Below are positions 22,158 to 55,815 of a stretch of DNA of 64,000 nucleotides, piece by piece. How positions within the stretch are numbered: position 1 is the stretch's first letter; each line of letters opens with the position of its first letter. Both the position numbers and the translations under genes were made by a program. The notes under the pieces were generated by a model. The model did not search any database. It worked only from the letters and a program-made list of their open reading frames with translations, and had not been told where the DNA came from. This DNA is from Desulfovirgula sp. (GTDB lineage Bacteria > Bacillota > Desulfotomaculia > Desulfotomaculales > Desulfocucumaceae), in contig DYET01000052.1 of assembly GCA_020725625.1 (NCBI GenBank), positions 20,805 through 84,804 on the forward strand, in the 5' to 3' direction.

Positions 22158-22227
22158 GCGGTCCCGCAAAATATGTGTGGTAAACTGATGAAAAATTATT
22201 TATAATTACTTTATCAATAATCAATGC

Positions 22228-22342
22228 GGTCCATGAAGGACGTGTCTTAAAGGCCCCGATTATGAATCGGCTGAAACGAGGCCACGGAGGCTCATTGCTC
22301 GCAGTGAATTGTGGGGGAATGGCCGTCGTGGTTTTGTTTTTT
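22228..22342 (+). promoter_or_regulatory. Structured 5' leader, copy 1 of the twin-hairpin motif (CC-AUGAA-GG, CC-ACGGA-GG), with terminator
   Basis: Hairpin GUCC-AUGAA-GGAC at 22229-22241. CCGAUU-aug-AAUCGG follows. GGCC-ACGGA-GGCU lies around 22282-22290. 22282-22292 pairs with 22321-22331, followed by UUUUGUUUUUU. TATAAT at 22201-22206. Confidence 0.55.
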
Positions 22343-22382
22343 GGTGCTGTTTTAATATTGAGAAGAAAGGGTGGTATTTTAC

Positions 22383-23999
22383 GTGTTTTCAAAGTGGAGC
22401 TTAAAAAAGACGCTGGCCGTGACAATGCTGCTGTTATTACCGGCCCTCGCCGCGTCCGGCTGCGGCGGGAAGCAGAAGGGTGGGGACAAGCCGGCGGAGA
22501 CAAAAGAAATTGTTTATACCGTCGCCGATCCCACGGGAGACTGGGGCTTCCCTTCCCCGTTCGCTCATTATACAAGGGGGCCGGGTTATATAAGAATGAG
22601 CTTTCTATTCGACACGCTGGTATGGAAGGACGACAAAGGGTATGTTCCGGCACTGGCCAAAAGCTGGGAGTATAACAGGGAAGAAAACGCCTACACGTTC
22701 AAGCTTCAGGAAAACGCCACCTGGCATGACGGCAAGAAGTTTACGGCGCGGGACGTCGCCTTTACCATAGAATACACCAAGGAAAACCCGTATCAGGGGG
22801 TGGACTCCGGTGTGGTCAAAAAGGCCGAGGTGTTAAGTGATCACGAGATAAAGATATCCCTTAGCAAGCCTTACGCGCCTTTTCTGGACTATATCGGCTG
22901 CACTTTGCCCATCCTGCCGGAGCACATATGGAGAGACGTGAAGTCCCCCCAGCAATACCAGCAGAAGGAGGCATTGATTGGGACGGGGCCCTTTACCCTG
23001 GCCGATTACAACAAGGAGCAGGGTACTTACCTGTACAGGGCTAACGACCGGTACTACCAGGGCAGGCCGAAAGTGGCGGAGATAAGATTTATTAAAGTGG
23101 GTGCCGAGGTGGTTGCCGCAGCATTGAGGCAAAAACAGGCCAGCGCAGCCCAGGTGCCTCCCGAGCTGAGCAGGGAACTGGAAAAGGAAGGGTTTAAAAT
23201 ACTGGTGGGCAAACACGACTGGGTGGCCAAACTGATGATCAACCACCAGAAGGAACCCTTTAATAAAAAGGAATTCCGGCAGGCTCTGGCCTATGCCGTG
23301 GACCGGAAGGCGCTTGTGGACACCTGCCTGAGAGGGCATGGGATTCCAGGCAGCCCGGGTTTTGTGCCGGCAGACAGCAAGTGGTACAACCCGGTGCTGG
23401 ACGGTAAGTATCCGCACAGTCCGGAAAAGGCCGCCGATCTAATCAAGGGGTTGGGGTACGAGAAAAAGGGCAATTATTTTGAGAAAAACGGCCAAGCGCT
23501 GGAAGTGGAGCTTCTAATCAGCGGCAAAGGGACCGGGGTGCCCGGTTCCCCGGGAGAGCGCGAGGGAGAAATGATTAAAAATCATCTGGAAAAACTGGGC
23601 ATAAAGGTCAACATGCGCGGGCTCGAGTCAAAGACTCTGGACAACAGGGTGGCTGAGTGGAAATTTGACATCGCGCTGACCGGTCACGGCGGTATGGGAG
23701 GTGATCCAGAGACACTTAACAGGATGATCCTGGGCAAAAGTTTCAACAGCGCCAGATATCAGAACAACAAAGATCTAAACGCGTTGCTGAATCAGCAGAT
23801 GGCTGCCATGGACGGCGAAAAGAGGGCCGAACTGGTGAAAAAAATACAGGAGCTTTATGCCGAAGAAATGCCCGCTCTGCCCCTGTACTCCCCCACCTGG
23901 TACTGGGCCCATGACGGCAGGGTAGACCTCTTTTACACTTTCCAGGGCGTGGCCAACGGCGTGCCCATACCGCTTAACAAAATGGCTTTCGTTAAATAG
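22383..23999 (+). CDS. ABC transporter substrate-binding lipoprotein, family 5 (peptide/nickel, OppA/DppA/NikA-like)
   Basis: Lipobox LAASGCGG, then the family-5 pattern (FKLQENATWHDGKKFTARDVAFT...). GTG 22383 follows AAAGGGTGG. The track starts 4 codons earlier. Confidence 0.88.
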   Translation: MFSKWSLKKTLAVTMLLLLPALAASGCGGKQKGGDKPAETKEIVYTVADPTGDWGFPSPFAHYTRGPGYIRMSFLFDTLVWKDDKGYVPALAKSWEYNREENAYTFKLQENATWHDGKKFTARDVAFTIEYTKENPYQGVDSGVVKKAEVLSDHEIKISLSKPYAPFLDYIGCTLPILPEHIWRDVKSPQQYQQKEALIGTGPFTLADYNKEQGTYLYRANDRYYQGRPKVAEIRFIKVGAEVVAAALRQKQASAAQVPPELSRELEKEGFKILVGKHDWVAKLMINHQKEPFNKKEFRQALAYAVDRKALVDTCLRGHGIPGSPGFVPADSKWYNPVLDGKYPHSPEKAADLIKGLGYEKKGNYFEKNGQALEVELLISGKGTGVPGSPGEREGEMIKNHLEKLGIKVNMRGLESKTLDNRVAEWKFDIALTGHGGMGGDPETLNRMILGKSFNSARYQNNKDLNALLNQQMAAMDGEKRAELVKKIQELYAEEMPALPLYSPTWYWAHDGRVDLFYTFQGVANGVPIPLNKMAFVK

Positions 24000-24036: not shown

Positions 24037-24207
24037 TTGACTTTTCTCCATATGTAAAATATAATTTAATTTAAAAGCTTGCCATGAAGGCATTCGGTCT
24101 TTGGCGTATTCGTTTGACAAACAATTATTAAAAAACCAAAGAAATGTAAAACGGCCACGGAGGTCCTCGTTTTGCCGGGAAAGGCAAAGGGAAACAGTGG
24201 CTTTTTT
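24037..24207 (+). promoter_or_regulatory. Internal promoter (TTGACT-17-TATAAT) plus structured leader, copy 2 of the twin-hairpin motif, ending in a GCCAC...GUGGC-U6 terminator-like stem
   Basis: TTGACT 24037-24042; TATAAT 24060-24065; UGCC-AUGAA-GGCA 24081-24091; UCUUUGG...CCAAAGA stem; GGCC-ACGGA-GGUC around 24155-24163; GUGGC 24197-24201 followed by TTTTTT. Confidence 0.55.
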
Positions 24208-24226
24208 ATTGGGGAGAAGTCCCGCA

Positions 24227-25198
24227 GTGGATAAAAAAAACACGGCGATTAGCTATGGTATTGCTCTGCTGGTTATACTGACCCTTAACTTCGTACTGCC
24301 CAGGCTTATGCCGGGCGACCCGCTGCAGGCCATCTACGGGGATGAGGCATTGATTGCCATGACCCCTGAACTTAAGGCGGATATTGTCAGGAGATTTTCG
24401 CTGGACAAGCCGCTGGGGGATCAGTTTGCGGCATATGCGGCGGCATTGGCCAGGGGTGACCTGGGACACTCTTATTATTTCAACGCACCGGTTATAAATA
24501 TAATCCTCGGCCGGCTTCCATGGACACTGCTTTTAGTCGGCCTGGCGGTGGTCATATCTACTGCTGCCGGGCTGATCATGGGGATAGAGGCGGGATACAG
24601 ACGCGGCAGGGTTCCGGATCACCTAGTAATCGCGGGGATGATGCTGGTCAGCGGGTTTCCGGACTTTTTCGTGGGTATGCTTTTGTTGCTGCTGTTTGGT
24701 GTCACGCTGGGGCTGGTGCCAATAGCGGGGGGCATGACCCCGTACGCATCCCACAGCGGGTTGGCGGTCCTGCTGGACGTTATGCACCACCTGGCGCTGC
24801 CCCTGGCCTCGCTGGCGCTGGTCAGGCTGGGCGGGACCTGCCTGCTGGCCCGTAACACCATGGTGATTACGCTGGGGGAGCCGTTCATAACTACGGCTAG
24901 GGCCAAGGGCTGTCCCGATTACGCTGTCAGGTACAGACATGCAGGGAGAAGCACCCTGCTGCCAGTGGTTACGGCGGCAGGGCTGCAGCTGCCGCACATG
25001 ATATCCGGAGCATTGTTTGTGGAGATGGTTTTTTCCTATCCGGGCATGGGCACGATTCTCTACAACTCCCTGTTAACCAGGGACTACCCGCTTTTACAGG
25101 GCATTTTGCTTTTCATAACCTTAACGGTGCTGGCGGTCAACCTGTTGGCCGATCTGCTTTATATGAGAATTGACCCGAGGGTGACATATGCACGTTAA
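24227..25198 (+). CDS. ABC transporter permease (DppB/NikB-like)
   Basis: LPRLMPGDPLQ N-terminal motif and a BPD_transp_1 core. GTG 24227 follows GGGGAGAAG. The upstream part of track ORF 24101.. covers the leader and is not coding. Confidence 0.85.
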   Translation: MDKKNTAISYGIALLVILTLNFVLPRLMPGDPLQAIYGDEALIAMTPELKADIVRRFSLDKPLGDQFAAYAAALARGDLGHSYYFNAPVINIILGRLPWTLLLVGLAVVISTAAGLIMGIEAGYRRGRVPDHLVIAGMMLVSGFPDFFVGMLLLLLFGVTLGLVPIAGGMTPYASHSGLAVLLDVMHHLALPLASLALVRLGGTCLLARNTMVITLGEPFITTARAKGCPDYAVRYRHAGRSTLLPVVTAAGLQLPHMISGALFVEMVFSYPGMGTILYNSLLTRDYPLLQGILLFITLTVLAVNLLADLLYMRIDPRVTYAR

Positions 25199-26051
25199 TT
25201 ACTGGAGAGAGGTCAAAAGAAATGGTTTCGGAAAGGCGGGGCTGGCGATTATTCTGCTGATGGCCGCAACCGCCGCCGCCGCTCCCCTCATGGCCAAGTT
25301 CAGCCCAGGCGAGTACACGGGTCATATATTCCACCCGCCTTCGGCCAGGTTCTGGCTGGGTACCAACGACGTGGGGCAGGATATCTGGTCGCACCTGGTG
25401 TACGGGGCCCGCACGTCTTTGGCAGTGGCTTTCGGCGTTTCTTTTTTGTCGGTTGCCTTCAGCGTGCTGGCGGGTGGGCTGGCGGCCATAACTGGAGGGA
25501 CTTTGGACCGGCTGGTGATGAGGCTGGTAGACTCCCTGATCATAATCCCCCCTCTGGTGGTGGTCATACTGGTGGCTGCCTACGTCCGTCCAAGCCTGGT
25601 GCTGATGATCGTCATGTTGGCGGCCATAATGTGGCCGGGGGGGGCGCGGGTGGTCAGGTCCCAGGTGTTGTCCCTCAGGGAAAGAATGCACGTGGATGCG
25701 GCCAGGACTTTCGGTGCCGGCCGGGCATATTTGCTGCGAAGGCACATAATCCCAGAGATGGGGCCGATACTGACGGCGGTGCTGATACAAAACGCCCGCA
25801 GGGCGGTGTTCATGGAAGCGGGACTCTCGTTTCTCGGCGTTTCCGATCCCTCGGTGTGCAGCTGGGGTAAGATGATGCAGCACGCCCTCAGGTTTTCATA
25901 CCTGGAGGTGTGGAAATGGTGGCTATTACCTGCCGGATCAGCTCTTTCACTGACTATGGCGGGACTTATATACACGGGGTTTGCCTTGGAAACGGTTTTG
26001 AACCCGAGAATGAGGAAAGAGGCGGCACATGCTGACAATCAGGGGGCTTAA
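25188..26051 (+). CDS. ABC transporter permease (DppC/NikC-like)
   Basis: 287 aa with LGTNDVGQDIWS, typical of DppC/OppC N-termini, and 6 predicted TMS. Overlaps the neighbouring genes. Confidence 0.88.
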   Translation: MHVNYWREVKRNGFGKAGLAIILLMAATAAAAPLMAKFSPGEYTGHIFHPPSARFWLGTNDVGQDIWSHLVYGARTSLAVAFGVSFLSVAFSVLAGGLAAITGGTLDRLVMRLVDSLIIIPPLVVVILVAAYVRPSLVLMIVMLAAIMWPGGARVVRSQVLSLRERMHVDAARTFGAGRAYLLRRHIIPEMGPILTAVLIQNARRAVFMEAGLSFLGVSDPSVCSWGKMMQHALRFSYLEVWKWWLLPAGSALSLTMAGLIYTGFALETVLNPRMRKEAAHADNQGA

Positions 26052-27693
26052 GGTTTCATACAACGGGGTGCCGGTTATCAACGGGCTGGACATTTCTGTG
26101 ACCAAGGGAGAGGCGGTCTCGGTCATCGGCGAGTCGGGGGCCGGAAAAACCACCCTGGGCCTCTGCGTCATGGGGCTGGTGGAAGGGCAATGCTCGGGGG
26201 AAATCATAATTAACAACAGGAATATTTTTAAAATGTCCGGGGAGGACCTGAGAAAATCCCGCGGCAAGTTGATGTCCATGGTGTTTCAGAATACAGAAAA
26301 TGCCCTGCACCCGCTGTATACTGTGAAGGACCAGGTTGCGGAGGCGATTTTGTTGCACGAGAACGTGAGGAGATCCGAAGCGGTGGCACGGGCCGGCGAA
26401 ATATTGCATGCCGTGGGAATAGAGGGCGTCTGGTCGGAAGCCCACCCCCACCGGCTCAGCGGCGGGCAAAAACAAAGGGTTCTGATTGCTCTGGCCCTGG
26501 TCAACGGCCCGGAGGTGGTCATTCTGGACGAGCCTACGGCCTCCCTGGACGTGCTGACCAAAGAAGAGATCATCCTGTTGATAAAAAGGTTGACCAGGGA
26601 CAAAGCGACCCTGGTGATCACCCACGACATCTCCACGGCGGCCAGGGTCGGCGGTCGGCTGGCCGTAATGTACGCGGGCAAAATCCTGGAGGCCGGCCCC
26701 ACGGAAGAGGTGCTGTCAAATCCACGCCACCCGTATACCAGGGGCCTGATTAGGTCATATCCGGACATGTCGGCAACCAAGGACTTGCAGGGGATACCAG
26801 GCAGGATGACGCGCGGGGTTCCGGGCTGCCCTTTTCATCCCAGGTGCACCCAAAAGATATCCGTCTGTTACACTGAACCGCCGGCGCCGTTGGAAAGCGG
26901 CGACCGCCAGGTGGCGTGTCACCGCGGGGGTATTGTGCCGCTTTTGGAAGTGGAAGGGCTGGTCAAGACTTTTGGATCAATAGAAGCGGTGCGGGGTGTA
27001 AACCTCACCCTTTACGAGGGTGAGACTCTGGCCCTGGTGGGCGAGAGCGGATCGGGGAAGTCTACGCTGGCCAAGATGATTATCGGAATACACAGCCCCG
27101 ACAGCGGCGTTATCAGGCTGGAGGGGGAAATTCTCGCGGCCAGGCGCCCCGCTGAATTTTACCGCAAGGTGCAGATGGTGTTCCAGAACCCCGGTGAGTC
27201 CGTAAGCCACCGGATGAACGTGCTGGAAGTGGTAAGGGAGCCTCTGGACGTCAGGGGGAATGAATGCGAGGACAAAAAACTGGATACAGTCAGGCGTGTG
27301 CTTGACGAAGTTGAATTACCGGGGGACGATGAGTTTTTAAGTAAATACCCCCACCACCTGAGCGGGGGGGAGGTGCAAAGGCTGGCCATAGCCAGGGCGC
27401 TGGTGCTGAATCCAAAAATATTGATAGCCGATGAGCCGACGTCCGCCTTGGACGCCAGCGTGCAGGCCAAAATACTAAAGCTGCTGCTAAACCTGCAGGA
27501 AAAAAGGGGCCTGGCCATATTGATGATAACCCACGACATCGCCCTGGCCCGGAAGGTCAGCGACAGGATGGCGGTGATGCTGAAGGGGGAAATAGTGGAG
27601 GAGGGGCGCACGGCGGTTCTGTCTTCCGCGCCTGCGCACAGCTACACCAAAAGCCTGATTGGCTGTATGAACAAGAATAATGTTATCAAATGA
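26029..27693 (+). CDS. ABC transporter ATP-binding protein with two fused ATPase domains (DppD-DppF / NikD-NikE fusion)
   Basis: 554 aa with two Walker A sites (GESGAGKTT, GESGSGKST), two signatures (LSGGQKQR, LSGGEVQR) and an oligopeptide-type C-terminal extension (HPYTRGL...CPFHPRC) after domain 1. Confidence 0.9.
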   Translation: MLTIRGLKVSYNGVPVINGLDISVTKGEAVSVIGESGAGKTTLGLCVMGLVEGQCSGEIIINNRNIFKMSGEDLRKSRGKLMSMVFQNTENALHPLYTVKDQVAEAILLHENVRRSEAVARAGEILHAVGIEGVWSEAHPHRLSGGQKQRVLIALALVNGPEVVILDEPTASLDVLTKEEIILLIKRLTRDKATLVITHDISTAARVGGRLAVMYAGKILEAGPTEEVLSNPRHPYTRGLIRSYPDMSATKDLQGIPGRMTRGVPGCPFHPRCTQKISVCYTEPPAPLESGDRQVACHRGGIVPLLEVEGLVKTFGSIEAVRGVNLTLYEGETLALVGESGSGKSTLAKMIIGIHSPDSGVIRLEGEILAARRPAEFYRKVQMVFQNPGESVSHRMNVLEVVREPLDVRGNECEDKKLDTVRRVLDEVELPGDDEFLSKYPHHLSGGEVQRLAIARALVLNPKILIADEPTSALDASVQAKILKLLLNLQEKRGLAILMITHDIALARKVSDRMAVMLKGEIVEEGRTAVLSSAPAHSYTKSLIGCMNKNNVIK

Positions 27694-27702
27694 ATATTTT
27701 TG

Positions 27703-27858
27703 TTGACATGTTGCACCCCCGGCATTATATTTAAACTTGGCAGGCAGATGCGGCGGCACGGCAATATGGGTCTACCTTTTGCGGGTAGGGCGATGGAGTT
27801 CGCCTAACGCTTAAGAGAGCTGATAACTCCTACCTTTTATGGTGGGAGTTTTGTTTTT
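27703..27858 (+). promoter_or_regulatory. Promoter (TTGACA-17-TATATT) and attenuator/riboswitch-like leader with an intrinsic terminator, upstream of the cation:proton antiporter
   Basis: TTGACA 27703-27708; TATATT 27726-27731. Terminator AACUCCUACC-uuuuau-GGUGGGAGUU + UUGUUUUU at 27825-27858. The alternative pairing of 27784-27800 (GGUAGG..GGAGUU) with 27825-27834 is antiterminator-like. CUACC 27772-27776 can sequester GGUAG 27784-27788. Confidence 0.6.
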
Positions 27859-27882: not shown

Positions 27883-29007
27883 ATGAGCATTTGGCTTGAC
27901 GCGGCCTTCTGGGTCGGGTTGGCCCTGGCGGCGTCTGTAATTTCGGTGCGCCTTGGAATCTCGGTGGCCATGGTGGAAATCATGGTGGGGGTTGTAGGCG
28001 GAAATTTTCTGGGCCTGCACACCACGCCCTGGGTCGATTTTCTGGCCGGCTTCGGCAGCATACTGCTGACCTTCCTGGCTGGCGCAGAGGTGGACCCGAA
28101 GGTGCTCAGGTCCAAATTCAAGGAAAGCGTCTCCATAGGCGCCATGTCGTTCCTCTTTCCCTACCTGGCCTGTTTTGCCTACGCTTATTACGTGGCCGGC
28201 TGGGATTTGCAGGCTTCCCAAATAGCCGGGATTGCTATGTCGACCACCTCGGTGGCCATCGTGTACGCCGTAATGGTGGAAACAGGTCTTAACTCCACAG
28301 AGCTGGGGAAGATCATCCTGGCCGCCTGTTTTATCACCGACCTGGGGACAGTTCTGGCCCTTGGCATCCTATTCGCCCACTTTAATTACTGGCTCTACAT
28401 ATTCATGGCGGTCACGGCGGCAGCCTTCTTCCTGGTACCCAGGGCGGCCGGGTCGCTGGTAAAATCCCTTGGCGGCCGGGTGAGCCAGGTTGAAGTCAAG
28501 TTTGTTTATTTTATCCTCTTCCTGCTTGGGGGACTGGCGATAAAAGCCAACAGCGAAGCCGTGCTTCCCGCCTACCTGCTGGGCCTGTCCCTGGCCACTC
28601 TGCTGGCCGGGGAAAAGGATGTGCTGTACCGGATGAGGACCACCGCCTTTGCCGTGCTGACGCCGTTTTTCTTCCTGAAGGCCGGCCTGCTCATATCCCT
28701 GAAGGCGCTTTGGATGGGTCTTTTGATCATCCTTGTCTTCCTCCTGGTCAAGGTGGCGGCCAAATTCACCGGGGTCCTGCCCCTTACAGTGTTTTTCAGG
28801 TTCGGCAGGAGGAATTCCATGTACACCACCCTGCTGATGTCCACCGGCCTTACCTTCGGCAGCATTTCTGCCATGTTCGGCCTGACCCACAACATCATCA
28901 ACCAGGCCCAGTACTCGGTCCTGGTCACGGCAGTTGTTCTCAGCGGCGTTATCCCGACTCTATTCGCCCAGGCCTTTTTCAGACCGGACGGGGGATCTCA
29001 AAATTGA
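27883..29007 (+). CDS. Cation:proton antiporter (Na+/H+ exchanger family, CPA1/CPA2-type, no RCK domain)
   Basis: 374 aa and highly hydrophobic, with about 11 TMS. GGAGGTGGG RBS. Confidence 0.8.
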   Translation: MSIWLDAAFWVGLALAASVISVRLGISVAMVEIMVGVVGGNFLGLHTTPWVDFLAGFGSILLTFLAGAEVDPKVLRSKFKESVSIGAMSFLFPYLACFAYAYYVAGWDLQASQIAGIAMSTTSVAIVYAVMVETGLNSTELGKIILAACFITDLGTVLALGILFAHFNYWLYIFMAVTAAAFFLVPRAAGSLVKSLGGRVSQVEVKFVYFILFLLGGLAIKANSEAVLPAYLLGLSLATLLAGEKDVLYRMRTTAFAVLTPFFFLKAGLLISLKALWMGLLIILVFLLVKVAAKFTGVLPLTVFFRFGRRNSMYTTLLMSTGLTFGSISAMFGLTHNIINQAQYSVLVTAVVLSGVIPTLFAQAFFRPDGGSQN

Positions 29008-47679: not shown

Positions 47680-48396
47680 ATGATTACGCCGGAAATGAGG
47701 CGTTCGCTGAAGCAGATGCTGCTGAATGAAAAAAAGCGGCTGCTGGAAAGGATTGAGGGAATAGACCAGGGAGGACTTCACGAGTCCCTGGGATCGTCCA
47801 TAAGTGAGCTCTCCCTTTACGACAATCACCCGGGGGATGTGGGCAGCGAGGTATTTGAACGGAGCAAGGACTTTGCCCTGCGGGAAAACGCCATGATGAT
47901 GATCGGCGCCGTTGAAGACGCCTTGCGGAAGCTGGAAAACGGAACGTACGGCCAATGCGACCTGTGTGGCCGGGAAATACCGCCCCAAAGGCTTCAGGCC
48001 GTTCCCTACGCAACGCTCTGCATCCGCTGCAAGAGGGCAGACGAACAAATCCCCAGGGCCGGTAAGCGGCCGGTGGAGGAGGAGGTGCTGGAGGATGTCT
48101 ATGCACGGCCCTTTGACGACGAAATAGATAACGTGGAATTCGACTGGGAGGACTCCTTTCAGCAGGTGGCCCGCTGGAATGAAAATGCCGTCTGGTCCGA
48201 AGCCGGGTCTTATTACGGGTCCGGGGAACCGGTGGAGGAAGACCGCAGGGGTGTGCTGGAAGACGTGGACGGCATCCCCTACGAAGTCGGCGACGACGGC
48301 GTTATTTACCAAAGCTTTAAAAGCATTAACGACGAGGACGCCCCGGGGGAGATCATCGACATCGGCATCCAGCACACCGGGGGGGACAACGGCTGA
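47680..48396 (+). CDS. YteA-family (DksA/TraR C4 zinc-finger) sporulation-associated regulator
   Basis: YDNHPGD and CDLCGREIPPQRLQAVPYATLCIRC. Confidence 0.85.
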   Translation: MITPEMRRSLKQMLLNEKKRLLERIEGIDQGGLHESLGSSISELSLYDNHPGDVGSEVFERSKDFALRENAMMMIGAVEDALRKLENGTYGQCDLCGREIPPQRLQAVPYATLCIRCKRADEQIPRAGKRPVEEEVLEDVYARPFDDEIDNVEFDWEDSFQQVARWNENAVWSEAGSYYGSGEPVEEDRRGVLEDVDGIPYEVGDDGVIYQSFKSINDEDAPGEIIDIGIQHTGGDNG

Positions 48397-48546: not shown

Positions 48547-49500
48547 GTGAGGCAAAGGGTAAATACCGCCGGAGTATCGATTATAGCGAGCCTCGCCCTG
48601 ACAGCGGGCAAACTGGTGGCCGGCGCCGCCACGGGATCGGCCAGCGTTTTTGCCAGCGGGATTCATTCCGGCCTGGACGCGATGGCCGGCGGGCTTTCCT
48701 ATTTTTCAGTCAACCAGGCAGCAAAGCCGGCTGACGAGGACCACCGGTACGGCCACGGTAAATATGAAAATGTCGCCGCCGTGGCCGAGGCCCTGTTTAT
48801 GCTCCTGGCCGCTGCGCTTATCCTGTTCAAGGCCCTGCCGGGGATTTTCCGGGGCGGCACTGAGGTTCGCCTAATCGACCTGGGGATGGCCGCCGCCGGC
48901 GTATCGGCCCTGATCAGTTTTTTGGTTTCGGCCATGCTGGCCGGTGCTTACCGGAGGACCGCCTCCGAAGCGTTTCTGGCCGACTTGAAGCACGCCAGGA
49001 TCAACGGCGGAGCCTCTGCGGCCGTCTGTTTGGGAATGGCCGCCGTTAAATACACCGGGTGGACGGTCATCGATCCTCTCATGGCCGTGGCGGTTACCCT
49101 GATCCTGTTCAGGGAGGGATACGGCCACCTGAAAAAGTCGGCCGGCGGGATAGTGGATGTCAGACTTTCCCGGGAAGAGGAGGAAGCGATCAGGGAAGTC
49201 CTTGCCAGCCACGGGGGAAGGTACGTGCAGTACCACGCCCTGCGCACCCGGCGGTCGGGGCCGGACCGCTACGTCGACCTGCACCTGGTGGTCCCCAGGG
49301 ACCAGGTAATTTCGTTGACTCACGAAATCTGCGACAGTATTGAAAGAGACGTCCGGGAGAGACTGCCGGGCATCAATGTACTGATCCACGCCGAACCCTG
49401 CCGTCCGGTCAGCGGAGAGTGCAGTAGTTGCGGCATAGGTAGAACCGTGCGGGGTGCCGAAGAGGAGTCTGCCGACTGCACCGCCAAACCTGGTTCTTAA
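48547..49500 (+). CDS. Cation diffusion facilitator (CDF) family metal exporter
   Basis: TM helices with the HSGLDA motif and HRYGHGKYE, plus a C-terminal cytoplasmic domain. GTG start. Confidence 0.85.
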   Translation: MRQRVNTAGVSIIASLALTAGKLVAGAATGSASVFASGIHSGLDAMAGGLSYFSVNQAAKPADEDHRYGHGKYENVAAVAEALFMLLAAALILFKALPGIFRGGTEVRLIDLGMAAAGVSALISFLVSAMLAGAYRRTASEAFLADLKHARINGGASAAVCLGMAAVKYTGWTVIDPLMAVAVTLILFREGYGHLKKSAGGIVDVRLSREEEEAIREVLASHGGRYVQYHALRTRRSGPDRYVDLHLVVPRDQVISLTHEICDSIERDVRERLPGINVLIHAEPCRPVSGECSSCGIGRTVRGAEEESADCTAKPGS

Positions 49501-51800: not shown

Positions 51801-53150
51801 TTGTCCCCGAACGGTTCCCAGGCAAGGATTGTTTACGATCTTGAAGACAGGCCCCCATTCAGAAGGACGCTGGCGTACAGCGCCCAGTGGCTTATTTTTA
51901 CCCTGACCAACTTGGCTGCGCTGCCCCTGGTGCTGGGCACGGCCCTGGGCCTGGATCAGGCCGGGATAGCCGACCTGGCCCAGCGGCTGTTGTTTTTTTC
52001 GGCCTTGGCGTCACTGCTCCAGGTGCTGTTCGGGCACCGGCTGCCCATCATGGAGGGTCCGGCCGGGATGTGGTGGGGCGTCTTCATGACCCTTGCCGTA
52101 CTGGCTCCGGGGATGGGAAAGCCGCTGGCGCAACTGCGGACCGACCTGGAGGCCGGCCTTATCGCGGCTGGACTGGTCCTGGTTTTGGTGGGGGCCAGCG
52201 GGTTGATCGGCATAGCCTTAAAGTTGTTTACCCCCGCCGTAACCGGTTCAGTGCTAATTTTACTGGGCCTGCAGCTGTCCGGGACCTTCGTCGGGGGAAT
52301 GCTGGGCGCCGGTTCGGGTGCCCCGGTAAATTTCAAGTCGATGGCGGTTTCAGCCCTGGTGGTGCTGGTGGTCTTCTGGGTAAGCCTAAAAGGCAGAGGT
52401 TTTCTGCGCAGCGTGGCCATCCTGGCGGGCATCCTGGCGGGCTGGCTGGCTTCGATTCCCTTGGGCCTTTCCGGCCCCGGCGGCTGGACGGGGGTGGAGA
52501 TTATCAGGCTGCCCGGGATTTTTGCCTGGGGGATGCCGACACTTGATTCCGGGATTATCTTTACCTCGGTAATGACCGGCCTGTTGGTCCTGAGCAACCT
52601 GGTGGCCAGCATACTGGCCATGGAAAAGACCATCGGCAGGGAGCTGCCGGGGCGCACCTATAACCGCGGCGTGATTTTTACCGGGCTGGCCGATATTATG
52701 GCCGGGGCCGGCGCCACGGTCGGATTTGTTCCCTATTCGGCAGGGGCGGGGATGGTCGGCCTGACCGGGGTGGCTTCCAGGCTGCCCTTCATAATTTTTA
52801 CCCTGGCCATGATGCTGTTGGGACTGGCGCCTCCGGTGGGAGTATTCCTCTCATCAATCCCGGCCCCTGTGGGTTACTCGGTGCTGCTGGCCTCCTTCGC
52901 CCAGATGTTCGGCTTCGGGATCAGGGACTACCTCCGGTTGAAACTTGACAGCAGGGACTTTTTCGTGGTGGGGGTGTCTGTACTGTTCGGCGCCGGGCTG
53001 ATGTTCCTGCCCCCGGATGCCTTCCGTGAATTGCCGGTGGCGGTCAGGTACATTTTGGGGAACGGTTTTATAGCCGGGATGATTCTGGTCGTCCTCCTGG
53101 AGCATGTTGTCCTTCCTGCTTCCCGCTTCGCCGAAAAAGGCAGCGAATAA
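51801..53150 (+). CDS. Nucleobase:cation symporter-2 (NCS2; xanthine/uracil permease) family transporter
   Basis: 449 aa polytopic protein with a PAPVGYSVLLASFAQMFGFG region resembling the NCS2 signature. TTG start after GGGAGATGG. Confidence 0.75.
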   Translation: MSPNGSQARIVYDLEDRPPFRRTLAYSAQWLIFTLTNLAALPLVLGTALGLDQAGIADLAQRLLFFSALASLLQVLFGHRLPIMEGPAGMWWGVFMTLAVLAPGMGKPLAQLRTDLEAGLIAAGLVLVLVGASGLIGIALKLFTPAVTGSVLILLGLQLSGTFVGGMLGAGSGAPVNFKSMAVSALVVLVVFWVSLKGRGFLRSVAILAGILAGWLASIPLGLSGPGGWTGVEIIRLPGIFAWGMPTLDSGIIFTSVMTGLLVLSNLVASILAMEKTIGRELPGRTYNRGVIFTGLADIMAGAGATVGFVPYSAGAGMVGLTGVASRLPFIIFTLAMMLLGLAPPVGVFLSSIPAPVGYSVLLASFAQMFGFGIRDYLRLKLDSRDFFVVGVSVLFGAGLMFLPPDAFRELPVAVRYILGNGFIAGMILVVLLEHVVLPASRFAEKGSE

Positions 53151-53158
53151 ATTTTATG

Positions 53159-53335
53159 TTGATCGGGCGCTTGGAAAAAGATATAATCAAATAAGCAGCG
53201 GGACCACGGAGGTCCTGTTACCGGTAGCAGCCAAAAATGTAAGTGGAAGGAATGGCCATGAAGGTCTGGATCCGCCGTAGGCGGTTATGTCGTCTGGACT
53301 TTTGTGGCTTACTTTTTTCCGGAATTGTGAGGCTG
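53159..53335 (+). promoter_or_regulatory. Promoter (TTGATC-17-TATAAT) plus structured leader, copy 3 of the twin-hairpin motif (order inverted)
   Basis: TTGATC 53159-53164; TATAAT 53182-53187; GGGACC-ACGGA-GGUCCU 53199-53215; GGCC-AUGAA-GGUC 53254-53266; CCGCC-gua-GGCGG follows; long-range GUAAGU...GGCUUAC stem, then U6 (53303-53308). Confidence 0.5.
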
Positions 53336-54124
53336 ATGAAAATGTTCGGGCCTGCCTGCGCAAGAACCGGCATCTTCCTTTACAGGATTGACCCCAGGAT
53401 CAAGGTGGTGTCCTTGTTCGGCTTCGTGGCGGTGGTTTCTTCCCTGACCTCGGTGCCCTTTCTGCTGGTTGCGGCCCTGATTATAACCGTCCTGTCCCTT
53501 TTTTCCGGCCTGGGCCCGGGCTGCCTGCTGCGCAGGGTGGCCCTGGTGCTGCCCTTTGCAGGGGTCATGCTGGCCGTTATTCCCTTCGCGGTTCCGGGCC
53601 AGGCGCTTTTTGGCATCAAGCTGGGGCCTCTCGCCCTGGCTGCCACGGAACAAGGGTTGGACCGGGCCGCGGTTCTTTCCCTGAGGATACTGACAGCCGT
53701 TCTGGCGGTAAACGCCCTTACCGCCACCACGCCTTTTTCGGAATTGATGAGGGCGTTCAGGGAGCTGAAAATCCCGGGGGTTTTCGTGCAGGTGCTGGAA
53801 TTTACGGTCAGGTACTTGTTTGTCCTGGCCGGGGAAGTTGACCGGATGAGGCTGGCCCGCAGGTCGAGGTGTTTTGAGTCCGGCGGCACCCTCCTGAACA
53901 GGGCCGTTTTCAGGACGCTGGGGCAGATGGTGGGAGTGCTGTTTATCAGGTCATGGGACAGGGGAGAAAGGATATACTGTGCCATGCTGTCCAGGGGTTA
54001 TTCAGCGGAGGCTGGCGCAGGGGGCCGGGCGCGCGGAATCAGGTGGGGGGACCTTTGCTGGGGGGTAGCCATCCTGGCTGCAGCGGTCGGCTTGAGGATT
54101 TTTGAAAGCGGGGCCGCCCGGTAA
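53336..54124 (+). CDS. cbiQ: Energy-coupling-factor / cobalt-type transporter transmembrane component (CbiQ/EcfT family)
   Basis: LYRIDPRIKVV start region and ARRSR coupling motif (LARRSRCF). The start is uncertain: ATG 53336/53342, or the longer in-frame form from ATG 53258. Confidence 0.8.
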   Translation: MKMFGPACARTGIFLYRIDPRIKVVSLFGFVAVVSSLTSVPFLLVAALIITVLSLFSGLGPGCLLRRVALVLPFAGVMLAVIPFAVPGQALFGIKLGPLALAATEQGLDRAAVLSLRILTAVLAVNALTATTPFSELMRAFRELKIPGVFVQVLEFTVRYLFVLAGEVDRMRLARRSRCFESGGTLLNRAVFRTLGQMVGVLFIRSWDRGERIYCAMLSRGYSAEAGAGGRARGIRWGDLCWGVAILAAAVGLRIFESGAAR

Positions 54125-54225
54125 CCCTGCAGATGTTAGCAATTGGGGCGCTCCGTGGACTGTGTGATCAAAATTGGAGGCCGCAGGCTTCTTCAGCCTG
54201 GGCCGAACAGGTCGGGGGAATAATA

Positions 54226-55056
54226 GTGGCCATTATTGAAGTCGATAACGTTTATTATACATATAAAGACGGCACCGAGGCCCTGAGGGGCCTCTCACTT
54301 TGCATCGAGGCGGGGGAGAAGGTGGCCCTCCTGGGACCGAACGGGGCCGGAAAATCCACCCTTCTCCTGCATTTCAACGGCATCAACCTGCCCCGCAGGG
54401 GAAGGGTGACCGTATTGGGACGGGAAGTCAACAGCAAATCAGAAAAGTGGGTGCGGTCGAGGGTGGGCCTCGTCTTCCAGGACCCCGACGACCAGGTTTT
54501 TTCGTCCACGGTCTGGGAGGATGTGGCCTTCGGTCCCCAGAACATGGGCCTGGACCGCCGGGAAATCGAGAGGAGGGTGGGGGACGCCCTTGAGGCGGTG
54601 GGGATGCAGGATTACCGCCAGAGGCCGCCCTACCACCTTAGCTACGGCCAGAAAAAAAGGGTGGCCATCGCCGGCATCCTGGCCATGCTTCCAGAGATTA
54701 TCGTGCTGGACGAGCCCATGGCCTTTCTCGATCCCAGGGGCAAGGACACTCTGGCGGAGATACTCAACCGGTTACACACCGGGGGTCGGACCATTGTCAT
54801 CGCCACCCACGACGTGGACTTCGCTGCAGAATGGGCCGACCGGGTGATTATCGTCAAGGATGGGAAAACCCTGGCCCAGGGCGGACGGGAGCTGCTGCAG
54901 GACCCCGGGCTGATGGAGGAGGCCCAACTGAGGTTTCCGGTGGTCAGCAAGGTATTTTCCTGTGTGCCCGAACTTAATGTTAAGCCTCTGCCCTTGACCG
55001 TCGACCAGGCGGTGGATATAATTAGAAAACTGATAAACAACGGAAAGCCGGAATAA
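54226..55056 (+). CDS. cbiO: Cobalt/nickel-type ECF transporter ATP-binding protein (CbiO family)
   Basis: GPNGAGKST, LSYGQKKRVAIAG and VLDEP motifs. GTG 54226 follows GGGGGAA. The upstream part of the track ORF is not coding. Confidence 0.88.
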   Translation: MAIIEVDNVYYTYKDGTEALRGLSLCIEAGEKVALLGPNGAGKSTLLLHFNGINLPRRGRVTVLGREVNSKSEKWVRSRVGLVFQDPDDQVFSSTVWEDVAFGPQNMGLDRREIERRVGDALEAVGMQDYRQRPPYHLSYGQKKRVAIAGILAMLPEIIVLDEPMAFLDPRGKDTLAEILNRLHTGGRTIVIATHDVDFAAEWADRVIIVKDGKTLAQGGRELLQDPGLMEEAQLRFPVVSKVFSCVPELNVKPLPLTVDQAVDIIRKLINNGKPE

Positions 55057-55062
55057 GAAGGG

Positions 55063-55815
55063 ATGTTTGAGATTATGGACAATGTCTCTCCCGAAGTGGT
55101 AAGAGGTTACTCGGTCTGGATTGAACCCGAAAGCCTGCACTACCACGCGGGAAGTGTGGTGCGGGCCAGGGCCCTTTGGGGGTGCATGATGAGGCGGGAT
55201 GGCGAGGCTGACACCGGGGGTTGGAACGCCTATGCCCTGGATCCCGGGGGGGCCGTGCTGGAGGCGGACATAGCCCGGGGTGAGGGAAACCTTTACAAAG
55301 TGGCCTTTTTTTCCGGCGGGGAGGGATTGTACAACCTCGTACTGGAGAACAAGGCCGGGATATACTGCAGGCTTCCCGGCGGAGAGTGGACCCGGGGACC
55401 CCGGGACAGCTGTCCCGGTGCGGTTGAATCGGCCAGGTTTTTCCAGAGGGCCAGGATCCCGGTTCCGGTGGGGCACCACATCCGGGGCAGGCTTGAGAGC
55501 GTAAGCGCGTTCGGCCTGGATGTATTCAGCCGGGAGTTCGGGGAGTACCGCCGGGGGGACAGCATAGTGATAAAGGTTTTTTACAATGGCCGGCCCCTTC
55601 CCGGCGCGGATCTGAAGGCTGCCTGCCATCTTTTTTCCGGTACGGAATACCCCTGGCGGGGTAGAACTAGCAAAGACGGGGAGGTTTCCTTCACCTTCCC
55701 TGAGAGGGGGCACTGGATGTTCACCTGTACCTTGGACGACGGGCAGGACGGCGGGGGGGCGGGATACGGCAGAACCGTGTATACCTCCAACTTTGTGGTG
55801 GCCGGGGTCAGGTAG
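55063..55815 (+). CDS. DUF4198-domain protein (nickel/cobalt-uptake-associated, CbiK/NikK-like) lacking a signal peptide
   Basis: GDSIVIKVFYNGRPLPGADL ... SKDGEVSFTFPERGHWMF matches the DUF4198 pattern as I remember it. The ORF starts 7 nt after the cbiO stop, so there is no room for a leader peptide. Confidence 0.65.
   Translation: MFEIMDNVSPEVVRGYSVWIEPESLHYHAGSVVRARALWGCMMRRDGEADTGGWNAYALDPGGAVLEADIARGEGNLYKVAFFSGGEGLYNLVLENKAGIYCRLPGGEWTRGPRDSCPGAVESARFFQRARIPVPVGHHIRGRLESVSAFGLDVFSREFGEYRRGDSIVIKVFYNGRPLPGADLKAACHLFSGTEYPWRGRTSKDGEVSFTFPERGHWMFTCTLDDGQDGGGAGYGRTVYTSNFVVAGVR

Follow-up and report, generated by a model that had tools for sequence, protein, structure and literature searches.

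The present analysis concerns a short RNA leader (hereafter copy 2) located inside a transporter gene cluster on a 64,000-nt stretch of contig DYET01000052.1 of Desulfovirgula sp.; the whole stretch is referred to here as the window. The cluster lies on the plus strand and begins with a gene encoding a solute-binding protein (SBP) of the peptide/nickel/opine family (SBP_bac_5; Pfam PF00496, E 4e-77) at 22383..23999, with its start taken from a 538-amino-acid database copy (P0001), which implies 22383, where the list of open reading frames (ORFs) gives 22371. This gene is followed by two permease genes containing the Pfam domain BPD_transp_1, the first at 24227-25198, which has a GTG start with GGGGAG ahead of it, and the second at 25188-26051, and by a gene for a fused double ATPase at 26029-27693, in which Pfam detected ABC_tran twice together with oligo_HPY. 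The fused ATPase cleared the NCBIfam cut-offs for NikD (355 vs 318.7) and NikE (350 vs 332.6). The SBP, with a NikA score of 132 bits against a cut-off of 393, and both permeases were under all NCBIfam equivalog cut-offs, and thus their substrate was not assignable by homology. Judged by its domain content, the cluster is a Nik/Opp-type ATP-binding cassette (ABC) importer, and its nearest protein relatives were found in Peptococcaceae, Pelotomaculum, and other metagenome-assembled genomes (MAGs) of Bacillota.

The gap of 227 nt between the SBP stop (23999) and the GTG of the first permease (24227) is no plain spacer and carries copy 2 inside it, as a first-pass annotation of the window had described, and all the features that it named for copy 2 were located again. 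A sigma-70-type promoter (TTGACT-17-TATAAT, 24037-24065, plus strand as are all elements of the leader) scored 11/12 in the promoter scan and tied for the top promoter-like site across 21.8-28.2 kb, which agrees with the view that copy 2 has a near-consensus promoter of its own and divides the cluster between the SBP gene and the genes for the permeases and the ATPase. Transcription is predicted to start at about 24072. Approximately 8 nt past this position, sequence and fold revealed a first hairpin (H1, UGCC-AUGAA-GGCA, 24080-24092), followed in the RNAfold minimum-energy structure by a variable middle hairpin with a 7-bp stem (UCUUUGG at 24098-24104 with CCAAAGA at 24136-24142). A second hairpin (H2, GGCC-ACGGA-GGUC, 24153-24165), the predicted antiterminator or sensor, contains the core CCACGGAGG, which fits the family core CCAYGRAGG described below.

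H2 overlaps the 5' arm of a predicted intrinsic terminator (24146..24208; minimum-energy fold, -23.9 kcal/mol), in which the arm UAAAAC.GGCCAC faces the partner arm GUGGCU.UUUUUA. In this fold, GUGGCU at 24197-24202 pairs with GGCCAC at 24153-24158, U6 occupies 24202-24207, and an inner hairpin (UUUGCC-GGGAAA-GGCAAA, 24171-24188) forms the upper part of the terminator. The run of A residues before H2 is the pairing partner of the terminator U-tract (alignment columns 5-7 with 66-68). The minimum-energy fold of the leader includes H1, the middle hairpin and the long terminator, and forcing H2 to form costs 7.3 kcal/mol relative to it. The leader therefore has the composition expected of a predicted intrinsic-terminator attenuator, that is, a G+C-containing stem and a U-tract which are mutually exclusive with an upstream hairpin.

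Two further leaders of this kind occur on the plus strand of the window. Copy 1, recognized from its sequence and fold (z-score -2.9), lies upstream of the SBP gene (22201..22345) and consists of a -10 box TATAAT (22201-22206), H1 GUCC-AUGAA-GGAC (22229-22241), H2 GGCC-ACGGA-GGCU (22280-22292), and a terminator ending at about 22339. As the first-pass annotation had noted, the element order is identical in copies 1 and 2, and copy 2 is a genuine second leader of the same type. Copy 3 (53159..53319; sequence, and fold z-score -3.9) was missing from that annotation and was found by searching the window for both cores. It starts with the promoter TTGATC-17-TATAAT (53159-53187) and contains H1 AGCGGGACC-ACGGA-GGUCCUGUU (53197-53219) and H2 GGCC-AUGAA-GGUC (53254-53266), the 5' arm of which pairs with GUGGCU ahead of a U-run to form the terminator. 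The loop order of copy 3 (ACGGA, then AUGAA) is reversed compared to copies 1 and 2, which indicates that both hairpins are variants of one element, CC-AYGRA-GG. Copy 3 is upstream of genes encoding CbiQ (53327-54124; Pfam, with the NCBIfam CbiQ equivalog cut-off cleared), an ECF/CbiO ATPase (54133-55056; Pfam, with the NCBIfam cbiO subfamily cut-off cleared) and a DUF4198 protein (55063-55815; Pfam), all on the plus strand. All three leaders of the window stand ahead of nickel/cobalt-type uptake genes. The sequence shared between the copies amounts to cores of 9-11 nt and the architecture, and nothing more extended; GGCCACGGAGG has two exact matches in the 64 kb, both within leaders (copies 1 and 2).

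The element was also found in other organisms. A scan of 185,579 species genomes, the window's own genome not among them, with a strict DNA pattern gave 14 matches, which is about the chance expectation, and the pattern is too narrow for a census of the family. It nevertheless yielded full twin-hairpin leaders in a Clostridia MAG (L003), ahead of CbiM-PDGLE-CbiQ-CbiO, and in a Bacillota MAG (L007), ahead of CbiQ-CbiO. Units were likewise present in a deltaproteobacterial MAG (L002), ahead of a TonB-receptor plug gene, and in a Nitrospirae MAG (L006), ahead of an OprB porin gene; in both of these the pattern match spans two adjacent units. Further units were collected from 80 metagenome loci with SBPs 49-65% identical to that of the window and from eight loci of closer relatives, many of them ahead of Nik-like SBP/permease, FmdE-zinc-finger or TrmO_N genes. 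Judged from these assemblies, the units span Bacillota, deltaproteobacterial and Nitrospirae genomes and the element is no local oddity.

Comparison of these loci revealed a basic unit not covered by the first-pass annotation, namely one hairpin NNCC-AYGRA-GGNN, a variable inner hairpin, a 3' arm (consensus CCUUCGUGG) and a U-run. The 3' arm is complementary to the entire 9-nt core and pairs with the 5' arm and the loop of the hairpin. Units occur singly (L018, L019, L021, L022, L027, and L069), in tandem with a terminator each (L002, L006, L029, and upstream of the SBP in L098), or as two hairpins with one terminator (the three window leaders, L003, L007, L095, L096, the L098 gap, and L099-L101). 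The loop variants were ACGGA, ACGAA, AUGAA, AUGGA and AGGAA, together with a possible variant ACAUA in L032/L036, which was not recovered by the covariance model, and hairpin pairs mostly combined one AUGAA with one ACGRA loop. Among all C-(A...A)-G-closed hairpins of at least 4 bp in the collected DNA, AUGAA (30) and ACGGA (20) were the commonest loops. Cores with these two loops were 10-fold enriched for the joint presence of a flanking stem and a matching terminator (Fisher p 4.6e-9), and the flanking stem was found in 23 of 28 cores chosen by the terminator alone, against a background of about 16%. The spacing between H1 and H2 was 38-46 nt in 9/10 twin leaders, and 64 nt in copy 2. Out of 29 units checked, 28 share the strand of the downstream ORF, and the 29th runs off its contig.

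Several observations were made on individual units. Extra AUGAAG strings occur inside inner or middle hairpins at L007 2640-2656 (minus strand; for example CUCUC-AUGAA-GAGAG), L027 2150-2160 and 3415-3425, and window 22262-22276, and could be additional weak binding sites. At L006 1244-1301, a near-perfect palindromic unit AAGGCC-AUGUA-GGCC...CCUACAUGGCCUU scored on both strands (49.6 and 34.2 bits) and may be a bidirectional terminator made from the same module. A Verrucomicrobiales contig (L001 5300-5700) contains a dense array of short repeats with CCACGGAGG, CCATGAAG and CCACTGAGTTTTTT strings, which does not fit the unit, the complementary 3' arm not being present. A twin-hairpin leader on the minus strand of L099 (2580-2644; CCUGC-AAUGAAG-GCAGG, AAGGCC-ACGAA-GGCC, then a terminator) faces ABC_tran and two ABC2_membrane genes of the exporter type, and thus not all targets are importers. 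Two other readings of the loops were tried and rejected. A leader peptide, with the AUG of the AUGAA loop as start and GGAGG as Shine-Dalgarno sequence, is not followed by a conserved ORF or start codon in other units, and CsrA-type GGA sites would not account for the AUGAA and ACGAA loops, which are without GGA.

The structure was analyzed in an alignment (A4) of 20 units from other organisms, which were anchored on the core because MAFFT applied to whole leaders misaligned H1 of copy 2. The core CCAYGRAGG is invariant at seven of nine positions. In the sensor hairpin the CC/GG pairs are invariant and the C-G closing pair was present in 20/20 units. The two adjoining pairs also form in 20/20, with changing composition (GU 8, AU 7, GC 5 at one; AU 8, GC 6, CG 2, GU 2, UA 2 at the other), a count to be read together with the way in which units were selected (see below). 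The covariation score of the hairpin was 0.40, compared to 0.21 for shuffled alignments and at most 0.22 with slid partners. Stems of H1 vary yet pair, the first flanking pair being formed in 10/10 twin leaders (UA, GC or AU). For the terminator, 87.7% of cells were paired, against 36-56% with slid partners; changes at loop position 2 are matched by its terminator partner (CG 12, UA 3, UG 3, GC 1), and the terminator pair outside the core also changes in a compensatory manner (GC 10, AU 7, GU 3). On this evidence, covariation supports two mutually exclusive predicted folds. G16 and G17 are invariant and always paired with C10 and C9 in the hairpin, and in the terminator they face a mismatch in 4 and 6 of the 20 units. 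The core is thus more conserved than its terminator partner, and selection therefore acts on the hairpin state, as expected of a recognized sensor state.

Energetic calculations on 23 units gave the terminator as the minimum-energy structure in 23/23, with an inner hairpin of variable sequence in all of them. The hairpin-forced state was 4-19 kcal/mol less stable, the hairpin alone having -2 to -8 kcal/mol, and therefore the hairpin would need outside help to form.

These data bear on two readings in which the hairpins have no role as RNA sensors. The first takes them as DNA operators, in which a repressor that depends on metal, for example NikR, would recognize the inverted repeats. In its favour, the distance from the -10 box to H1 downstream is 10-23 bp in all twin leaders, which is a classic site for a repressor, and NikR is the usual regulator of nickel uptake (PMC11672702). 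However, the asymmetric centre is conserved and the arms are variable, the opposite of what operators show; G-U pairs are frequent in the stem, with 8/20 units having one at the third pair; H2 is situated at 80-130 nt of the transcript and covaries with the 3' arm of the terminator; and 28/29 units agree in strand with the downstream ORF. We regard this reading as very improbable. Equally remote is the second reading, a small mobile or repetitive intergenic element (similar to repetitive extragenic palindromic sequences or miniature inverted-repeat transposable elements) without regulatory role. It would explain three copies in 64 kb, each with promoter-like and terminator-like parts, but it does not agree with copies that have no extended shared sequence beyond the 9-11 nt cores and the architecture, that always stand in sense orientation upstream of metal-uptake genes, and that are conserved across phyla with compensatory changes.

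A covariance model (R1) was built from alignment A4 with the terminator structure, leaving the window out, and the window was scanned with filters off. The top three matches were the three leaders: copy 1 (22274-22339; 35.7 bits, E 1e-6), copy 2 (24147-24208; 25.1 bits, E 4.9e-4) and copy 3 (53248-53315; 22.8 bits, E 1.9e-3). The next match had 14.9 bits, and this score gap is the safer argument, as the E-values derive from a quick calibration and are rough. R1 also recovered units in four relatives outside its training set (L099-L102, 21-41 bits). Copy 2 thus combines an R1 match with a position in sense upstream of nickel/cobalt-type uptake genes, and comparative analysis showed it to belong to a conserved family, defined by sequence and predicted structure, in which a hairpin competes with a terminator ahead of nickel/cobalt uptake genes.

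In Rfam 15, the sole match in the whole window at gathering level was a fluoride riboswitch at 27780-27839, and relaxed searches (E<=10) of the leaders and related units (seven regions) gave no relevant match, including to the NiCo and cobalamin riboswitches. The best relaxed match, to the 'trpB motif', was rejected as a terminator-like similarity at chance level (24.5 bits vs a cut-off of 59).

The same gap was then compared in relatives. The closest relative found (L098, SBP 76% identical) has a gap of 176 nt with the same layout as copy 2: TTGACT-17-TATAAT, UGCC-AUGAA-GGCA, GGCC-AGGAA-GGCC, and a terminator GGCCCG...CGGGCC with a U-rich run, which competes with H2. Both promoter hexamers, H1 (15/15 nt, block TTGCCATGAAGGCAT), the H2 core and the terminator tail are conserved between the two, and the middle hairpin is not conserved in sequence and has a 22-nt deletion in L098. 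Judged from this alignment, such block-wise conservation is a footprint of function. The short flanking strings which the first-pass annotation had reported as shared were not kept in relatives, GUCUU after H1 being missing from L098 and L096. In relatives with SBPs 67-72% identical (L095, L096, L099-L102), no internal leader was found: the genes overlap in L096, the gaps are 26, 23 and 60 nt in L099, L100 and L101, respectively, and other genes follow the SBP in L095 and L102. In all of these relatives, however, a unit precedes the cluster. Most gaps in the 80 metagenome loci do not exceed 80 nt, and the motif was present in none of the larger ones. The proposed comparison of orthologous clusters therefore had a divided outcome, with gap, promoter and motif kept in L098 and the internal leader missing from all other relatives, a pattern that marks it as a recent, lineage-specific insertion of a standard module.

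A simpler account of copy 2 would be a constitutive intercistronic terminator combined with an internal promoter, setting a fixed ratio of SBP to membrane components without sensing. ABC importers commonly have high SBP-to-permease ratios, and the terminator is the stable fold. Such an arrangement would, however, need neither a 9-nt core identical to that of other nickel/cobalt leaders nor a covarying alternative hairpin, and H1, which is outside the terminator, is nevertheless identical in L098. We consider this account improbable.

Taken together, the data point to copy 2 as a cis-acting transcription attenuator with its own promoter, in which an antiterminator under the control of an effector governs expression of the permease and ATPase genes; this we regard as the probable, if by no means secure, interpretation. 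RNA from the internal promoter, and probably read-through RNA from the SBP gene too, would enter the leader. In the default state, pairing of GUGGCU with the 5' arm and loop of H2 (GGCCAC...) would end transcription near 24207, before the permease and ATPase genes. An effector bound to the CC-AYGRA-GG hairpins (H2, aided by H1 at some 40-60 nt upstream) would keep H2 closed, so that no terminator forms and the permease and ATPase genes are transcribed. The effector would contact H2 and H1 at their conserved loops and closing pairs, and in copy 2 the longer middle hairpin would bring the two hairpins together. Since a stabilized hairpin would mean expression of importers, the most likely role of the effector is to report that nickel or cobalt is scarce.

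The first-pass annotation had described two independently promoted units gated by the same signal. The internal promoter supports the first part of this proposal, but the units are not fully independent: no terminator was seen between the SBP stop and the internal promoter, so that read-through from upstream should also meet leader 2, and leader 2 would therefore act as an intra-operon attenuator as well. Gating by the same signal is reasonable, since the CC-AYGRA-GG hairpins are common to all copies. The SBP message would pass one gate, and the permease/ATPase message would pass the second, or both if read through from upstream. Two gates could plausibly allow an excess of SBP together with a sharper response of the membrane complex, the two modules being dosed separately.

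Several points weigh against this interpretation. Both transcript ends (start near 24072, 3' end near 24207) are predicted, and so are the effector and the direction in which the leader would regulate. A Pfam scan that covered 36 of the window proteins gave no ANTAR-domain protein or other RNA-binding regulator and no effector candidate. The spread of the motif over several phyla, with no regulator gene conserved in its neighbourhood, is more typical of direct ligand sensing. It was present in just 9 of the 80 metagenome loci (SBPs 49-65% identical), and is therefore not a constant companion of this transporter family. A few units precede genes with no obvious metal link, namely Ldh, DUF3842 and an ABC-2 transporter. 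In addition, most units were chosen for at least two flanking pairs, and thus the pairing at the first two stem positions is inflated. Two of the atypical placements are a unit at L027 2121-2181 ahead of a lactate/malate dehydrogenase gene and one at L025 2513-2563 (minus strand) ahead of DUF3842.

Direct sensing would make the leader a true riboswitch, in which the hairpins bind a small ligand or ion themselves. In one version the two loops would dock and hold H2 closed (ON), as in the guanidine-II riboswitch (mini-ykkC), in which each of two short hairpins conserves an ACGR tetraloop as well as two G-C pairs (PMC5558903). In another, the terminator helix would hold the metal site, and binding of Ni2+ or Co2+ to its purine run ACGGAGG would promote termination (OFF). 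The guanidine-II precedent is a close one in economy, as both elements have very short hairpins, an ACGR-like loop, a variable linker and 8-9 conserved nt per hairpin, and each hairpin here has a conserved A-Y-G-R-A loop and two C-G pairs. Also in favour are the units of Bacillota, a deltaproteobacterium and a Nitrospirae MAG without a common neighbouring regulator gene, the complete tandem units each with a terminator, similar to tandem riboswitches (L002, L006, L029, and L098), and the usual pairing of one AUGAA with one ACGRA loop. On the other hand, a hairpin stabilized by metal would mean importers induced by the very substrate that they take up, the reverse of what a trace metal calls for, and the invariant nucleotides belong to the hairpin state and not to the terminator helix, which speaks against a metal site there. 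The many one-hairpin units (L018, L019, L021, L022, L027, and L069) show that loop-loop docking is not general, at most two base pairs are possible between the two loops, and no Rfam riboswitch model matched. The guanidine-II element itself differs in having a tetraloop, where an AYGRA pentaloop on two C-G pairs is found here, and in acting on translation of guanidine carboxylase and SugE genes, compared to a terminator ahead of nickel/cobalt-type importers; its Rfam model gave no match at E<=10 on 24060-24225 or 53150-53340. Overall, we judge a riboswitch in this strict sense rather unlikely.

The preferred attenuator model has a close mechanistic parallel in the targets of ANTAR proteins (EutV, NasR, AmiR; Ramesh et al. 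2012, PMC3369931), which likewise have two small hairpins with conserved loop residues and closing pairs. There, as proposed for copy 2, the downstream hairpin excludes an intrinsic terminator and effector binding gives read-through, and the overlap of H2 with the 5' arm of the terminator agrees with the rule that the second hairpin competes with the terminator. The details differ, however. ANTAR targets are defined by hexaloops with A1 and G4 in both loops (PMC3369931), whereas the present family has loops of 5 nt on an invariant C-G pair with the pattern A1, G3 and A5, A1 being invariant and position 4 being G in ACGGA and A in AUGAA and ACGAA. The eut leader linker measures 5-12 nt, and EutV linkers of 3 or 14 nt abolished induction (PMC3369931), compared to a spacing of 38-64 nt here. 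Single-hairpin units exist in the present family, and its genes serve metal uptake, in contrast to the ethanolamine, nitrate and amide use of ANTAR-controlled genes.

Iron-responsive element (IRE) hairpins provide a second parallel, as an analogy only. They are bound by IRP/apo-aconitase when metal is scarce, which raises uptake functions through mRNA stability or translation. Both kinds of element are short hairpins with conserved loops in one or several copies, and they differ in organisms, loop sequence and output, which is termination here. By analogy with IRP/aconitase and ANTAR proteins, the chances seem evenly balanced that the effector would be an RNA-binding protein active in its metal-free form, a reading that we favour over direct ligand sensing. 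A wider proposal, which we put forward only tentatively, is that the CC-AYGRA-GG hairpins would be the sensor of a new RNA class reading nickel/cobalt status, either directly or through a metal-dependent RNA-binding protein.

Two known or reported RNA elements connected with nickel and cobalt were considered. The NiCo (czcD) riboswitch was reportedly described by Furukawa et al. in 2015. It folds into a four-way junction and turns on exporter genes in response to metal (reviewed in PMC11672702). It resembles the present element in being an RNA of nickel/cobalt homeostasis in anaerobes that acts via a terminator, and differs from the tiny hairpins found here ahead of importers, which gave no Rfam match to it. 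Weinberg et al. are said to have listed in 2017 an orphan 'NiCo-AnGGAG' motif from Clostridia upstream of predicted nickel/cobalt transporter genes. We see about even odds that the present family is identical with that motif, which makes the identification a lead at most. The ACGGAG of H2 and the gene association fit the name, but the AUGAAG, ACGAAG and AGGAAG loops deviate from it. A literature search gave no paper on an RNA leader for nickel/cobalt uptake and no relevant text containing 'AnGGAG'. No RNA sensor for nickel/cobalt import is among those listed in a 2024 review of metal sensing in bacteria (PMC11672702).

If the hairpins do form such a sensor class, it would be the first RNA-level sensor for nickel/cobalt import, and with direct sensing it would be a minimal riboswitch of about 13 nt per hairpin, with an economy similar to that of guanidine-II. 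Known control of nickel/cobalt uptake relies on proteins acting on DNA (NikR and others) or on the B12 riboswitch. In this lineage the sensor would be used twice in one operon, setting the SBP and membrane/ATPase modules separately, and the internal copy is well suited as a natural case in which to ask how the balance between binding protein and membrane components is set in bacteria. A portable hairpin/terminator switch shared across anaerobic phyla would also point to a missing regulator or ligand in the trace-metal economy, which matters for hydrogenases, CO dehydrogenase/acetyl-CoA synthase and corrinoid enzymes. Should the family prove identical to NiCo-AnGGAG, the gain would be smaller, consisting of an expanded consensus (AYGRA vs AnGGA) and a terminator/antiterminator model backed by covariation. 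The associations with FmdE-zinc-finger, TrmO-like, TonB receptor and porin genes and the intra-operon placement would still be new.

FmdE and TrmO_N genes recur in the motif-controlled Nik-like clusters, and some have a unit of their own ahead. FmdE-domain proteins, mostly with a DksA/TraR-type zinc finger, are encoded at L095 3100-3711, L069 2785-3327, L029 2827-3435, L098 521-1660 and L096 9104-9608, and TrmO_N proteins at L019 3005-3496, L095 5658-6134 and L102 268-873. As a weak lead, these proteins might be metal chaperones or even the RNA-binding effector. A role of either as regulator in cis of the window leaders was rejected, neither being encoded in the window.

Other genes and elements of the window lie around the ABC cluster or further downstream. 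HlyD-HlyD-MFS efflux genes are located upstream of the cluster. The fluoride riboswitch (Rfam RF01734, 44.3 bits) is directly 3' of it, between a promoter TTGACA-17-TATATT (27703-27731) and a terminator-like hairpin (27825-27850), and the gene behind it (27883-29007) belongs to the Na_H_Exchanger family and is not crcB. Further downstream, a gene for a 238-amino-acid protein with a DksA/TraR C4 zinc finger (47680-48396) adjoins a Cation_efflux and ZT_dimer gene (48547-49500) of the cation-diffusion-facilitator type, and its zinc finger is of the same type as that in the FmdE proteins of related loci.

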